Positions 21,763 through 26,900 of a DNA stretch of 64,000 nt are shown one piece after another. Numbering within the stretch: the stretch's first letter is position 1; each line of letters starts with the position of its first letter. Below the pieces are notes generated by a model. The model saw only the letters and a list, made by a program, of their open reading frames with translations. It searched no databases and was not told the DNA's origin. Position numbers and translations under genes: made by a program. The stretch is taken from the NCBI RefSeq assembly GCF_044324875.1, contig NZ_CP172185.1; one strand, given 5' to 3'. This stretch comes from Escherichia coli. GTDB taxonomy: Bacteria > Pseudomonadota > Gammaproteobacteria > Enterobacterales > Enterobacteriaceae.

Positions 21763-23658
21763 ATGGCAGGGATATATCGCTGCATTTTGCTGTTGATAGT
21801 TGGGCTTTTTTTCTCTTCGTTGAGTTATCCGAAAAACACGGAGATCCCTTTTTATGAAGAAGGGATCTCGCTCTTTGATGTTGAAGCCACTCTGCAACCG
21901 GATGGGGTGCTCGACATCAAAGAAAATATTCATTTTCAGGCGCGAAATCAGCAGATTAAGCACGGATTTTATCGTGATTTACCACGACTCTGGATGCAGC
22001 CTGATGGGGACGCTGCACTGCTGAACTATCATATTGTTGGCGTCACCCGTGATGGTATTCCTGAACCCTGGCATCTTGACTGGCATATCGGGTTAATGAG
22101 TATTGTCGTGGGCGATAAACAACGTTTCTTGCCTCAAGGCGACTATCATTATCAAATTCATTATCAGGTTAAAAATGCTTTCCTGCGTGAGGGAGATTCA
22201 GATCTGTTAATCTGGAACGTGACTGGTAACCACTGGCCGTTTGAAATCTATAAGACCCGATTTTCACTCAAGTTCCCTGATATCGCGGGTAATCCATTTA
22301 GCGAAATCGATCTCTTTACTGGAGAAGAGGGCGACACATATCGAAATGGCCGCATCCTTGAGGACGGAAGAATTGAATCCCGCGATCCGTTTTATCGTGA
22401 AGATTTCACGGTACTCTACCGCTGGCCTCACGCTTTACTTAGCAATGCCCCGGCTCCACAAACGACGAATATTTTCAGCCATCTTCTTTTACCCTCCACG
22501 TCATCGTTGTTAATTTGGTTTCCGTGTCTATTCCTGGTTTGTGGATGGTTATATCTCTGGAAGCGCAGGCCGCAATTTACGCCGGTAGATGTGATTGAAA
22601 CCGATGTCATTCCGCCAGATTACACGCCCGGCATGTTACGTCTCGATGCGAAGCTGGTTTACGACGATAAAGGTTTTTGTGCCGATATCGTAAATCTGAT
22701 TGTGAAAGGCAAAATTCATCTGAAAGATCAGTATGACAAGAACCAGCAAATCCTGATTCGTGTTAATGAAGGCGCGACCAGAAATAATGCGGTATTACTG
22801 CCCGCAGAGAAGTTATTACTGGAAGCGTTATTTCGTAAAGGCGATAAGGTCGTTCTTACGGGGAGACGCAACAGAGTCTTACGCAGTGCATTTTTACGGA
22901 TGCAGAAATTTTATCTGCCGCGTAAAAAGTCTTCGTTTTACCGGCCTGATACGTTTTTGCAATGGGGCGGAATGGCGATATTGGCGGTCATTCTCTATGG
23001 TAACCTGAGTCCCGTAGGTTGGGCAGGAATGAGTCTGGTTGGCGATATGTTTATTATGATCTGCTGGCTTCTTCCTTTTTTATTTTGTTCCCTTGAGCTT
23101 TTGTTTGCCCGCGATGATGACAAGCCTTGCGTTAATCGTGTAATCATCACTTTGTTTTTACCGCTGATTTGTTCAGGCGTGGCCTTTTACTCTCTCTATA
23201 TCAATGTCGGAGATGTATTCTTTTACTGGTATATGCCAGCGGGTTATTTTAGCGCTGTTTTCCTGACCGGTTATCTCACTGGCATAGGGTATATTTTTCT
23301 GCCAAAGTTTACCCAAACTGGGCAGCAACGTTATGCCCACGGTGAAGCTATCGTTAACTATCTTGCGGGTAAAGAGGCAGCAACACACAGTGGGCGGCGG
23401 CGGAAAGGGGAAACACGGAAACTGGATTACGCGTTGTTAGGTTGGGCGGTCTCGGCAAACCTTGGCAGAGAATGGGCAGCACGTATCACCCCATCACTCA
23501 CAGCGGCTGTTCGCGCCCCGGAAATTGCCCGTAGTGGCGTTTTGTTCTCATTACAGATGCACCTGAGTCTGGGGGCCAATACCAGTTTGTTGGGGCGAAG
23601 TTATTCCGGTGGTGGTGCTGGCGGCGGGGCGGGTGGCGGAGGCGGTGGTGGCTGGTAA
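21763..23658 (+). CDS. yciQ: DUF2207 family membrane protein YciQ
   Basis: 631 aa with N-terminal signal/TM, central TM cluster and Gly-rich C-terminal tail. Confidence 0.88.
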   Translation: MAGIYRCILLLIVGLFFSSLSYPKNTEIPFYEEGISLFDVEATLQPDGVLDIKENIHFQARNQQIKHGFYRDLPRLWMQPDGDAALLNYHIVGVTRDGIPEPWHLDWHIGLMSIVVGDKQRFLPQGDYHYQIHYQVKNAFLREGDSDLLIWNVTGNHWPFEIYKTRFSLKFPDIAGNPFSEIDLFTGEEGDTYRNGRILEDGRIESRDPFYREDFTVLYRWPHALLSNAPAPQTTNIFSHLLLPSTSSLLIWFPCLFLVCGWLYLWKRRPQFTPVDVIETDVIPPDYTPGMLRLDAKLVYDDKGFCADIVNLIVKGKIHLKDQYDKNQQILIRVNEGATRNNAVLLPAEKLLLEALFRKGDKVVLTGRRNRVLRSAFLRMQKFYLPRKKSSFYRPDTFLQWGGMAILAVILYGNLSPVGWAGMSLVGDMFIMICWLLPFLFCSLELLFARDDDKPCVNRVIITLFLPLICSGVAFYSLYINVGDVFFYWYMPAGYFSAVFLTGYLTGIGYIFLPKFTQTGQQRYAHGEAIVNYLAGKEAATHSGRRRKGETRKLDYALLGWAVSANLGREWAARITPSLTAAVRAPEIARSGVLFSLQMHLSLGANTSLLGRSYSGGGAGGGAGGGGGGGW

Positions 23659-23868: not shown

Positions 23869-24744
23869 ATGAGCGAAAAGCTACAGAAAGTGCTGGCGCG
23901 TGCCGGCCACGGCTCTCGCCGTGAAATCGAATCTATTATTGAAGCCGGTCGTGTGAGTGTTGATGGCAAAATTGCTAAACTCGGCGATCGCGTTGAAATT
24001 ACCCCTGGATTGAAAATCCGTATCGATGGTCACCTGATTTCGGTACGTGAGTCCGCTGAACAAATTTGTCGCGTTCTGGCCTATTACAAACCGGAAGGTG
24101 AGTTGTGTACCCGTAACGATCCGGAAGGGCGTCCAACGGTGTTTGACCGTCTGCCAAAGCTGCGTGGCGCACGCTGGATTGCCGTGGGTCGCCTGGACGT
24201 TAATACCTGTGGTCTGCTGCTGTTCACTACCGACGGTGAACTGGCAAACCGTTTAATGCATCCAAGCCGTGAAGTTGAACGTGAATATGCCGTGCGTGTA
24301 TTTGGTCAGGTTGACGACGCGAAACTGCGTGATTTGAGTCGTGGCGTGCAGCTGGAAGATGGTCCGGCAGCCTTTAAAACCATCAAGTTCAGCGGCGGCG
24401 AAGGGATCAACCAGTGGTACAACGTAACTCTGACCGAAGGCCGTAACCGTGAAGTTCGTCGTCTTTGGGAAGCGGTTGGTGTGCAGGTAAGCCGCCTGAT
24501 CCGTGTTCGTTACGGTGATATCCCACTGCCGAAAGGTCTGCCACGCGGTGGCTGGACGGAGCTGGACCTCGCCCAGACTAACTATCTACGCGAACTGGTG
24601 GAGCTACCGCCAGAAACCAGCTCTAAAGTCGCTGTAGAAAAAGACCGTCGTCGTATGAAGGCGAATCAGATTCGTCGAGCGGTTAAGCGTCACAGTCAGG
24701 TGAGCGGCGGTCGTCGTTCTGGTGGACGTAATAATAACGGTTAA
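23869..24744 (+). CDS. rluB: 23S rRNA pseudouridine synthase B
   Basis: 291 aa; S4 domain plus RsuA-family catalytic core, Arg/Gly-rich C-terminus. Confidence 0.93.
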
Positions 24745-24763
24745 TTTAAGATAAGTATAAAAT

Positions 24764-24787
24764 AAAGGCCCTGCGGGGCCTTTTCTT
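24764..24787 (+). terminator. rluB intrinsic terminator
   Basis: AGGCCC-tgcg-GGGCCT hairpin followed by TTTTCTT 20 nt after rluB stop. Confidence 0.75.
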
Positions 24788-24913
24788 CATTTGAAGCATG
24801 ATAAATAGTCGCAGTATTTTAATTTAATTTCATACTTGCTTATGAATAATACCCGGAAATAGCCACATTACTATTTAATTATCTGAGATAAACTCAACGT
24901 CAAGAGGTGGGTT

Positions 24914-25936
24914 ATGATTAGATATAGTGGAATATTTCTATCGCTGTTAATGCTTTCAGGTTGTGCAACTGAAGCATTGAAAAACGAACAAGCTGAAACT
25001 GTTATTACTGCGGGTAACAAAGCAGTAGCGGCGAATGCAAGTTTCTTTAAACAATACTATGCTTCTCGTGAAAACTTCCTTGTTAATTTTTATGCGACTA
25101 ATCCGGATTGTGCACCTCGACCAGATTATGAGGTAGTTATTGAAAACAGTACCAGTGATGAGTCATTATGTCAGCAACCTGGAGATAAGCACAAAAAATC
25201 TCAAGAAGATCTTTTTATTACAAAGATAGTCGCTACTGAAAAAGAAAGATTGCTGGCTTCTATGGAAATCATTAGCAGTATGAGTTCTTATGTCGAACTT
25301 TTGAATGAGGATTTAGATGTTAAAGACAGCAAACAGTTCATATTGCTTAAACAAGCTCTGGATCACGCGAATAATGCGGGGGCACTTCTGGGCATCAATG
25401 ATGGTGGAACATTAACAAAATCTGCAGCAGCGGTTAAAGATTTAGTGGTTTATTTCAATGGGTTGTATAATACAAGGGTAAGCGCAGGGAATATAGGTAG
25501 TACGGTAAATAATCATTGGCAAAGAATAAAAAATGATCTAACTGATATACGAAACGATATCGCGACAAAAGGTAAACAAACTGGAAGAAATACCTTTGCG
25601 ACGGTACATAATAATCTCGTTTATTACAATGCCTCCTTAAAAAAAGGAGGAGGTAATGAATTTAAGACATTGAAGAGCAGACAAGAATTCCTGGCTGCGA
25701 TTATCAGTATTAATGAAACACGTCTTCGTGCAGCAGATCCAGCTATTCCAGCAATACAAGCACTGAACTCATTTCTTGACGAGGGGAATCACCTTAAGGA
25801 TTTATACACTAATAAAATACGCACAGCGGCTGAACAAAAAAGGCTAAATGAAATATTACGCGCACAGGTCATTAGTGGGTTAAAGGCGTCTGAGGGGCTG
25901 GCAAAACTACTTATTGCCAGCGGAATAATGTTATAG
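24914..25936 (+). CDS. predicted lipoprotein of unknown function (340 aa; AT-rich accessory gene absent from K-12 order)
   Basis: SD AAGAGGTG 6 nt before ATG; signal peptide MIRYSGIFLSLLMLSGC with lipobox L-S-G-C, +2 Ala; AT-rich codon usage; no family recognised. Confidence 0.75.
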   Translation: MIRYSGIFLSLLMLSGCATEALKNEQAETVITAGNKAVAANASFFKQYYASRENFLVNFYATNPDCAPRPDYEVVIENSTSDESLCQQPGDKHKKSQEDLFITKIVATEKERLLASMEIISSMSSYVELLNEDLDVKDSKQFILLKQALDHANNAGALLGINDGGTLTKSAAAVKDLVVYFNGLYNTRVSAGNIGSTVNNHWQRIKNDLTDIRNDIATKGKQTGRNTFATVHNNLVYYNASLKKGGGNEFKTLKSRQEFLAAIISINETRLRAADPAIPAIQALNSFLDEGNHLKDLYTNKIRTAAEQKRLNEILRAQVISGLKASEGLAKLLIASGIML

Positions 25937-25948
25937 GAGGGGCTTTTT

Positions 25949-26257
25949 ATGAACGATGTACAAAACCGTAGAATATTGGCATTACTTGATATGCTGTATA
26001 ATACTCTGGGCAACAAAACCACATGCAAGGTTTGTCATAAATATTTTATCCTTATCCTCACGGTGATGAACAATCTGACGATTAACTACGGTACTGAAAC
26101 TTCGCCAGAGTTAAGCGGAATCAGTTATGAAGATGCCAATGCGTTAATTACTGAACTGATATTATTTATTGAAGATGTTGACGCTGAGAATCATGAAGCA
26201 TATCCGGGACATTTGAATGAGATTAAACGGATTCTGAGTTTTGCTATTGCCGCTTGA
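25949..26257 (+). CDS. small hypothetical protein (102 aa) co-transcribed with upstream lipoprotein
   Basis: SD TAGGAGG overlaps stop of upstream ORF, ATG 12 nt downstream; no signal peptide; CKVCH motif, acidic C-terminal half; AT-rich. Confidence 0.65.
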   Translation: MNDVQNRRILALLDMLYNTLGNKTTCKVCHKYFILILTVMNNLTINYGTETSPELSGISYEDANALITELILFIEDVDAENHEAYPGHLNEIKRILSFAIAA

Positions 26258-26271
26258 ATATAATTATGATT

Positions 26272-26306
26272 AAAGCACCTCAAGAGGCGATCTTTTGAGG
26301 TGCTTT
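26272..26306. terminator. perfect 12-bp stem hairpin abutting btuR stop (bidirectional terminator candidate)
   Basis: AAAGCACCTCAA-gaggcgatctt-TTGAGGTGCTTT read directly; lies between the small ORF and convergent btuR. Confidence 0.65.
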
Positions 26307-26309
26307 CAC

Positions 26310-26900
26310 TTAATAATCAATCCCTATTTGCGCCTTAACACCGGCATCAAACGCATGTTTGATGGGGCGCAGCTCACTTACCGTATCCGCCAATTCAAGA
26401 ATATCCCGATGACAACCACGACCCGTGATAATCACCGTCTGTTGATGTGGACGTTCATTTAACGCCTGCACCACTTCTTCCAGTGGCAAATAGTCATACG
26501 CCACCATATACGTCAGTTCATCGAGCAAAACCATATCCAGTGAAGGATTGGCAAGCATCCGCTTTGCATGTTGCCAGACTTCGCGACAGGCGGCGGTATC
26601 AGACTCGCGGTTTTGTGTATCCCAGGTAAAGCCCGTTGCCATCACCTGAAATTCAACGCCGTGTGGTTCCAGCAGATTTCGTTCGCCATTAGGCCAGGTG
26701 CCTTTAATAAACTGCACGACGCCCACTTTTTTTCCGTGACCAACTGCGCGTGTTGCCGTACCAAATGCCGCGGTGGTTTTGCCTTTTCCATTGCCGGTAA
26801 AGACGATGATAATACCGCGTTCATCCTGGGCCTGGGCCACACGAGCATCGACTTTTTCTTTCACTCGCTGCTGACGCTGTTGGTAGCGTTCATCACTCAT
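26310..26900 (-). CDS. btuR: cob(I)alamin/cobinamide ATP:corrinoid adenosyltransferase
   Basis: 196 aa; P-loop GNGKGKTTAAFG; 4-nt overlap with yciK. Confidence 0.93.
   Translation of the reverse strand: MSDERYQQRQQRVKEKVDARVAQAQDERGIIIVFTGNGKGKTTAAFGTATRAVGHGKKVGVVQFIKGTWPNGERNLLEPHGVEFQVMATGFTWDTQNRESDTAACREVWQHAKRMLANPSLDMVLLDELTYMVAYDYLPLEEVVQALNERPHQQTVIITGRGCHRDILELADTVSELRPIKHAFDAGVKAQIGIDY

Follow-up and report, generated by a model that had tools for sequence, protein, structure and literature searches.

Cor (of phi80, N15 and HK022), Llp (of T5) and Ltp (of Streptococcus thermophilus TP-J34) are lipid-anchored envelope proteins without an enzymatic domain. Here we analyze a gene pair of Escherichia coli whose larger product, the 340-amino acid (aa) lipoprotein precursor encoded by open reading frame (ORF) A, is predicted to be like them in these respects. 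ORF A and the adjacent ORF B, which encodes a 102-aa acidic protein, lie between the core genes rluB and cobO (also named btuR) in a 64,000-nucleotide stretch of contig NZ_CP172185.1 (assembly GCF_044324875.1), hereafter the window. One distant homologue of ORF A is moreover an AT-rich moron in the tail-gene region of a P2-like prophage, and the variability of ORF A that we describe below would be expected if its target were a phage protein or a receptor. Ltp is also helical, and Cor and Llp are much smaller lipoproteins than 340 aa. There is, however, no sequence or profile similarity between these proteins and ORF A (PHROGs, Pfam, PDB), and the cassette, in contrast to them, always comes with a small second gene and is chromosomal at a core locus in Escherichia rather than phage-borne.

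Two other groups of described systems invite comparison. The defence systems collected in PADLOC-DB v2, including the PD-systems of the E. coli pangenome, are small operons of low GC content with a patchy occurrence among strains, as is the pair studied here, and distant relatives of the pair are found beside Hachiman, PDC-S15 and putAbiC and in the accessory slot of P2; but no model of this database matches significantly, and the E. coli copy is located outside defence islands and mobile genetic elements. The O-antigen, fliC and variable outer membrane protein loci likewise maintain discrete, deep allele classes with mosaic breakpoints at a fixed locus, and the rluB-cobO site resembles such balanced loci also in the raised diversity of a linked gene (cobO) and in having classes common to several Escherichia species. 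It differs from them in its null allele, present at 77%, in its length of only 1.5 kb, and in a 5' third and putative promoter that are almost invariant.

Allele classes of the gene pair in E. coli

We surveyed 5426 complete E. coli genomes, of which 5422 had the flanks. The gene pair is present in 1234 of the 5426 (22.7%), every time between rluB and cobO. In the carriers both genes are annotated as hypothetical proteins. Allele classes were assigned by megablast, the queries being the central parts of ORF A in three representative sequences: class C (representative strain 536) comprises 776 genomes, class B (strain CT30) 425, and class A, represented by the window itself, 33, which adds up to exactly the 1234 carriers. 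In the K-12 derivative ER1821R, a 39-bp hairpin spacer alone separates the stop codons of rluB and cobO, and this spacer is unrelated in sequence to either end of the insert. The four empty-site strains examined (K-12, TW10690, 2010C-3142 and the B2 strain 83972) are of different backgrounds and carry an identical 39-bp spacer, so that there is effectively one empty allele. Since strain 536 is occupied and strain 83972 is empty, presence and absence of the pair vary within phylogroup B2. A one-codon (3-nt) AAT length polymorphism immediately before the rluB stop (24735-24744) exists among E. coli strains, and it is the reason why empty-site matches came in two lengths, 772 and 775 bp.

Two apparent complications were traced to database records. 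The PLSDB entries CP054249.1, CP054253.1 and NZ_CP134663.1, filed as E. coli plasmids, hold the chromosomal trp-rluB-cobO region; plasmid-borne copies were rejected, the plasmid matches being mis-assigned chromosome pieces. A candidate fourth allele in CP054249.1 (32.6% identical) was also rejected, as it comes from a low-quality assembly in which frameshifts disrupt rluB and cobO as well as the lipoprotein gene.

A sliding comparison of the classes revealed a mosaic structure. Between classes, identity is 93-100% in rluB, in the 169-bp region upstream of ORF A and in the first ~215 nt of ORF A, and it falls to 40-78% (60-nt windows) from position 25129 to about 25850. In this central region of the lipoprotein gene, which begins within the loop between Cys66 and Cys86, 35-40% of the nucleotides differ between classes. 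Over the last ~90 nt of ORF A and the whole of ORF B, classes A and B agree at 92-98% of positions, whereas class C shares about 70% identity with them. Class A thus has its 3' module in common with class B and a central region that is different, which implies recombination.

We then quantified substitution between the classes with the Nei-Gojobori method. In codons 1-72 of ORF A, the proportion of synonymous differences (pS) is 0.10-0.21 and that of nonsynonymous differences (pN) is 0.01. In the variable parts, pS reaches 0.56-0.82 and is saturated (0.56-0.79 in the central region of ORF A), to be compared with rluB values of 0.07-0.09 among E. coli strains and of 0.52 when E. coli is set against Citrobacter. 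The corresponding pN is 0.17-0.50 (0.22-0.50 in the central region), and protein divergence is ~20 times that of rluB (dN of 0.2-0.4 versus 0.015). The ratio dN/dS is nevertheless lower than 1 in every segment (0.02-0.55), with a peak of 0.27-0.55 in codons 73-110. Purifying selection acts on both ORFs; positive selection gained no support, given a dN/dS below 1 in all segments and the saturation of synonymous sites. These values indicate that the classes are old alleles under purifying selection, and not the outcome of recent positive selection.

Diversity is also raised on one side of the cassette. Identity between haplotypes is 91-96% for cobO versus 97-99% for rluB and yciK, and the cobO haplotype linked to class B is the most distinct. 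The pattern looks like linked diversity beside a long-maintained balanced polymorphism, or else like recombination tracts that were imported together with the cassette.

Age of the polymorphism

A search of 100,044 species representatives found the pair at the rluB-cobO site of E. whittamii and E. albertii, and Citrobacter sp. ANG330 and a related Citrobacter-like contig carry it between the same two genes, with 52-53% protein identity. Class C alleles of E. coli and E. albertii are 81% identical in the variable region and 86% in ORF B, next to 88.5% in rluB and 86.5% in cobO. For class B, the comparison of E. coli with E. whittamii gives 93.7% in the variable region, 92.6% in ORF B, 94.6% in rluB and 92.0% in cobO. 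Between different classes, identity in the variable region is only 60-65%. The divergence of each allele class between species is therefore about equal to that of the flanking core genes, a pattern that fits classes older than the species splits (trans-species polymorphism); recent transfer does not fit. Taken together, the comparisons indicate an old trans-species balanced polymorphism, with three allele classes and one empty allele at the rluB-cobO site; as judged from the same alignments, the cassette is not mobile in Escherichia.

Structure of the locus

A preliminary description, made from the letters of the window alone, had noted an AT-rich segment missing from the K-12 gene order, with two same-strand ORFs 12 nt apart, each preceded by a strong Shine-Dalgarno sequence, and with no integrase, transposase, tRNA or flanking direct repeat; each of these observations is borne out (Table 1). 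The insert (1565 bp) fills the gap between rluB and cobO exactly, and its junctions are flush with both stop codons. Its GC content is 37.3%, versus 50.4% for the whole window and 50-54% for the flanks, and GC at third codon positions (GC3) is 0.29 in ORF A and 0.37 in ORF B, versus 0.47-0.54 in yciQ, rluB, cobO, yciK and sohB. The Shine-Dalgarno sequence of ORF B overlaps the stop codon of ORF A, and ORF B is translationally coupled to ORF A. No tRNA is located within 10 kb on either side of the insert (15000-36000), no direct repeats flank it, its sole inverted repeats are two terminator hairpins, and there is no ORF for an integrase or transposase between rluB and cobO. A genomic island or integrative mobile element was thus ruled out at this locus, which lacks integrase, transposase, tRNA and att-type direct repeats. 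The rluB terminator hairpin of the occupied allele is kept as far as Citrobacter, and the K-12 hairpin is different; the bidirectional terminator at the other end is kept in the other alleles.

The 169-bp upstream region (24745-24913) shows 95-98% identity over all Escherichia alleles, E. albertii included. It thereby exceeds in conservation the adjacent rluB, which in E. albertii is only about 88% identical. Several blocks (TAGTCGCAG, TTCATACTTG, ATTAC and the Shine-Dalgarno sequence of ORF A) are kept as far as Citrobacter. A scan of the region with the sigma-70 consensus found no promoter match, and an Rfam scan gave nothing at threshold. Its conservation suggests that the region is probably a constrained promoter or operator.

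Table 1. Features of the rluB-cobO interval in the window (positions from the first nucleotide of the window)
Feature	Position	Strand	Description
rluB	23869..24744	+	Left flank core gene; ORF and RefSeq annotation of identical or related records
Insert	24745-26309		1565 bp
rluB terminator	24764..24783	+	Hairpin AAAGGCCCTGCGGGGCCTTT and T-run; terminator scan; occupied allele only
Upstream region	24784..24913	+	Conserved, non-coding; putative promoter or 5' untranslated region
Invariant block	24806-24814		TAGTCGCAG
Invariant block	24829-24838		TTCATACTTG
Shine-Dalgarno sequence of ORF A	24902-24911		AAGAGGTGGG; invariant
ORF A	24914..25936	+	340-aa lipoprotein precursor, predicted all-helical
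ORF A, conserved 5' segment	24914..25128	+	Codons 1-72: signal peptide, lipobox, long N-terminal helix
Cys17	24962-24964		Lipid Cys
Cys66	25109-25111		Conserved
ORF A, hypervariable central region	25129..25850	+	Defines the allele class (class A here); megablast, 33 genomes only
Cys86	25169-25171		Conserved
Shine-Dalgarno sequence of ORF B	25935-25942		AGGAGGGG
ORF B	25949..26257	+	102-aa acidic protein
Bidirectional terminator hairpin	26272..26306		Serves ORF B and convergent cobO; inverted repeat, 15-nt arms, 93% complementary
cobO/btuR	26310..26900	-	Right flank; annotation; stop at 26310

Outside this interval, we observed that the DUF2207 protein YciQ, encoded by yciQ (21763-23658), has a long C-terminal Gly-rich tail (…GGGAGGGAGGGGGGGW), and that GC content falls to 43-46% over much of this gene, below that of its neighbours.

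The lipoprotein and its small partner

The ORF A protein starts with MIRYSGIFLSLLMLSGC, followed by ATEA, that is, a signal peptide with the lipobox LSGC (…LLMLSGC before ATEA), in agreement with the earlier recognition of the larger protein as a lipoprotein. The lipobox fits the pattern [LVI][ASTVI][GAS]C with no Asp at position +2, and lipidation is predicted; no transmembrane segment is. An Asp at +2 bars export to the outer membrane by the Lol system. The residue of ORF A in this position is Ala, and by the +2 rule the lipoprotein is probably sorted to the outer membrane via Lol. An alignment of 29 family members leaves four residues invariant, a single Tyr and three Cys, one of which is the lipid Cys. 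Despite overall identities of 15-25%, every one of these members places the first loop Cys exactly 49 residues past the lipid Cys; the second loop Cys follows 18-26 residues further on. Nearly all members have a lipobox and a +2 residue of outer membrane type, and Asp at +2 occurs in none of the 24 with a match to the lipobox pattern. This arrangement suggests that an N-terminal spacer helix of fixed length leads to a disulfide-closed loop, at which the variability starts.

The ORF B protein has a net charge of -6, with neither signal peptide nor transmembrane segment predicted, and was modeled confidently as a four-helix bundle (predicted local distance difference test, pLDDT, of 90). Four residues, C26, C29, H30 and H88, do not vary within the Escherichia/Citrobacter clade. 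The sequence C26-K-V-C29-H30 brings to mind a c-type cytochrome, a candidate that we rejected, as ORF B is without an export signal and the motif is lost in the Buttiauxella partner described below. Fold searches with the model identified no specific relative: all Foldseek E-values were at least 0.16, and the best natural matches, the death domains of MLKL, HeLo and CC-R type, were equaled by designed bundles.

Both proteins had been described at the outset as matching no recognizable family, and this holds against Pfam, NCBIfam, PADLOC and PHROGs, none of which gave a family match for ORF A or ORF B. PADLOC-DB v2.0.0 returned nothing at E<=1 for either, and PHROGs matched ORF A only at the level of its signal peptide (phrog_890 'lipoprotein', E 0.16, residues 8-31). 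Profile searches of the PDB with three alignments gave only coiled-coil noise (PRC1 and an XRCC4-myosin chimera; E of at least 0.025). A type II toxin-antitoxin system was considered and set aside, since no Pfam or NCBIfam toxin or antitoxin domain is present and the larger protein has a predicted export signal. The locus was not described in the literature that we searched by RefSeq accessions, by flanking genes, for lipoprotein defence systems, and in the DefensePredictor supplements. We conclude that the gene pair is an uncharacterised new family, by function most probably of a known kind. This kind has a precedent, since one of the PD-systems of the E. coli pangenome is reported to be a lipoprotein that serves in defence (Vassallo et al., bioRxiv 10.1101/2022.05.12.491691).

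Distant relatives and their genomic contexts

A profile search of 1.84 billion cluster representatives recovered only 55 proteins, ~30 of which are full-length relatives of the lipoprotein (324-357 aa, 15-25% identity). Ten distant relatives searched against Pfam, NCBIfam, PADLOC and PHROGs gave only chance-level matches, three of them partial PADLOC matches (E 0.003-0.02, 13-15 bits). In 7 of the 8 distinct distant contexts that were readable, an ORF of 96-107 aa begins 1-25 nt downstream of the lipoprotein gene. The eighth (L017 2171-2980), belonging to a metagenomic relative of 64% GC, has a 269-aa partner that is rich in Ala in its N-terminal part and predicted to end in three or four transmembrane helices. 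The Buttiauxella partner is related to ORF B (26% identity). The other distant partners were not linked to ORF B by hhalign (probability 0.1%), and phmmer split the small partners into two separate clusters. As far as these profiles reach, conservation of the partner across the family is limited to its size and position.

The contexts on long contigs, a small sample, are mobile or defence-associated in four of four cases. In Buttiauxella agrestis, the cassette (33-40% GC) separates gpR/gpS from gpV/gpW (56-60% GC) in a P2-like prophage and fills the slot that the non-essential orf30 occupies in P2; a 2026 preprint places an accessory/defence hotspot inside the P2 tail genes. A non-essential AT-rich insert between S (tail completion) and V (baseplate), the mark of a P2-like moron, was found for this homologue only and not in the window. 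The Klebsiella variicola cassette adjoins the Hachiman genes HamA and HamB (PADLOC E 1e-135 and 1e-278) and an integrase. That of Raoultella is part of an element with two integrases, AlpA, putAbiC, HicB, an insertion sequence and a PDC-S15 candidate, and that of Methylomonas has VapBC, Fic, a Y1 transposase and a MazG_C protein as neighbours. The locus of Escherichia and Citrobacter has core flanks and no co-located defence genes.

Two further observations concern the Klebsiella and Raoultella elements. A conserved ORF of 72 aa (MSTEVIKSQVVGINAV…) is located ~250-350 bp 5' of the cassette (L021 9533-9751, L022 315-533, L023 9434-9652); it may be a third component or a regulator, and the window contains no counterpart of it. 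The K. variicola island with the cassette and Hachiman also encodes a 753-aa protein without any Pfam or PADLOC match (L023 5656-7917, minus strand).

Possible functions of the gene pair

We regard the pair as a conflict-type envelope module because it encodes a variable, putatively lipid-anchored and disulfide-stabilised protein evolving ~20 times faster than rluB, because its long-lived alleles coexist with a null allele, and because its distant relatives are found in prophage slots and defence islands. Within this frame our best guess, offered tentatively, is exclusion of phages or defence against them at the level of the envelope. Gene A encodes a lipoprotein predicted to be all-helical and probably located in the outer membrane, with a helix of fixed length that connects its lipid anchor to a hypervariable loop, presumably closed by a disulfide; a variable helical body comes next. 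Gene B encodes a small acidic cytoplasmic protein, modeled as a four-helix bundle. The lipoprotein would exclude phages (or some other invading agent) in the envelope, its variable part binding a phage or envelope component, and the allele classes would be specificity variants held by frequency-dependent selection, with the empty allele escaping the cost of the cassette. The small partner could be a regulator, a chaperone or an effector. The preliminary description had raised toxin/immunity, superinfection-exclusion and anti-phage modules as a hypothesis. Of these, the anti-phage and superinfection-exclusion idea gains support that is circumstantial, from the prophage, Hachiman, AbiC and toxin-antitoxin contexts of homologues as remote as 15-25% identity.

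Several results weigh against phage exclusion. Neither protein is homologous to known defence, exclusion, toxin or immunity families, and the cassette was found neither in 50,697 sequenced phages (INPHARED, tblastn) nor in IMG/VR. The prophage and defence contexts are known only from the relatives at 15-25% identity, in four long contexts, and the distant partners are not demonstrably homologous to ORF B. The structure model of ORF A is unreliable (pLDDT of 43). A cytoplasmic partner cannot touch a periplasmic lipoprotein directly, and the logic of the two genes is the main unexplained point. Finally, allelic diversity of an envelope protein fits pressure from host immunity or from bacteriocins equally well.

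One alternative, which we consider unlikely, is a lipoprotein for host interaction or a surface antigen (serum resistance, adhesion, immune evasion) comparable to Bor/Iss of lambda or TraT of plasmids, with classes kept by host immune or niche selection. Sorting of outer membrane type, the hypervariable disulfide loop and the long-lived allele classes would all suit such a protein. The commonest class is found in extraintestinal pathogenic E. coli (ExPEC) strains such as 536, and one distant homologue sits in a prophage moron slot, the kind of place that also houses conversion genes such as Bor and Lom. Yet there is no similarity to Bor, Iss, TraT or adhesin families, the B2 strain 83972 has the empty allele, and environmental taxa, for which host immunity is irrelevant, also harbour distant relatives (Methylomonas, high-GC metagenome contigs). 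The neighbours of distant relatives are defence and toxin-antitoxin genes rather than virulence genes. Another alternative is an orphan immunity module against an interbacterial toxin that acts in the periplasm (delivered by a type VI secretion system, contact-dependent inhibition or a bacteriocin), the variable region tracking toxin variants. Periplasmic and outer membrane lipoproteins are a common form of immunity against effectors of this type, and coevolution of toxin and immunity is consistent with both the allele classes and the presence/absence polymorphism. We judge this improbable all the same: neither the window nor the related loci have a toxin gene, a remnant of Rhs, VgrG or CdiA, or an immunity array nearby, 340 aa is large for an immunity protein, no known immunity family matches, and a conserved cytoplasmic partner would not be expected. 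Similarly improbable is an accessory housekeeping or stress function in the envelope without any role in conflict, for instance its maintenance in certain conditions, lost in most lineages. Although the fixed chromosomal site between core genes, the missing mobility genes, the conserved upstream region and the purifying selection on both ORFs speak for it, housekeeping genes do not typically diverge ~20 times as much as rluB at the protein level or split into deep, discrete allele classes, distant members reside on mobile elements, and the family is extremely rare (55 matches among 1.84 billion representatives). Neither finding that would have overturned the preliminary description was obtained: the pair is not present in K-12 and nearly all E. 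coli, and neither protein shows homology to a housekeeping family.

The fold of ORF B suggests two more specific proposals. In a two-component system akin to abortive infection or toxin-antitoxin systems, the four-helix bundle would be a membrane-disrupting effector (like those of MLKL, HeLo or CC type), and the lipoprotein would sense an envelope breach or restrain the effector. This appears quite unlikely. The identity of ORF B to the MLKL four-helix bundle, plant CC/CC-R and fungal HeLo domains is 8-13%, designed bundles score equally, and, in contrast to those executioners, no sensor or kinase domain is attached here; the resemblance is at the fold level only. More of a long shot is a novel type of immune module that works outside-in: the loop and body of the outer membrane lipoprotein would detect phage tail or ejection proteins, or a breach of the envelope, in the periplasm, the bundle would serve as cytoplasmic executioner or switch, and the alleles would be recognition specificities older than the Escherichia species. 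Barely credible, at the far end, is a recent strain-specific insertion of non-functional or selfish DNA. Low GC and GC3 and absence from K-12 are what such an event would leave, but the ORFs are intact with dN/dS of 0.02-0.55, there is no integrase, repeat or tRNA, and the same site is occupied in 1234 of the 5426 E. coli genomes and in three other taxa (E. albertii, E. whittamii and Citrobacter) with flank-like divergence. The same distribution calls for a revision of the initial view of the pair as strain-specific, horizontally acquired cargo.

Implications

If phage exclusion is the function of the pair, it would constitute a new defence family that acts in the envelope and is carried by roughly one in four E. 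coli strains, ExPEC such as 536 among them. Current defence finders miss the cassette because it is located outside defence islands and matches no model. The three classes would then be natural specificity variants, of relevance to the prediction of host range in phage therapy. Whatever its function, the rluB-cobO site offers a compact and clean case of trans-species balanced polymorphism with a null allele at a site in the bacterial core genome, suited to studies of how such polymorphisms persist.

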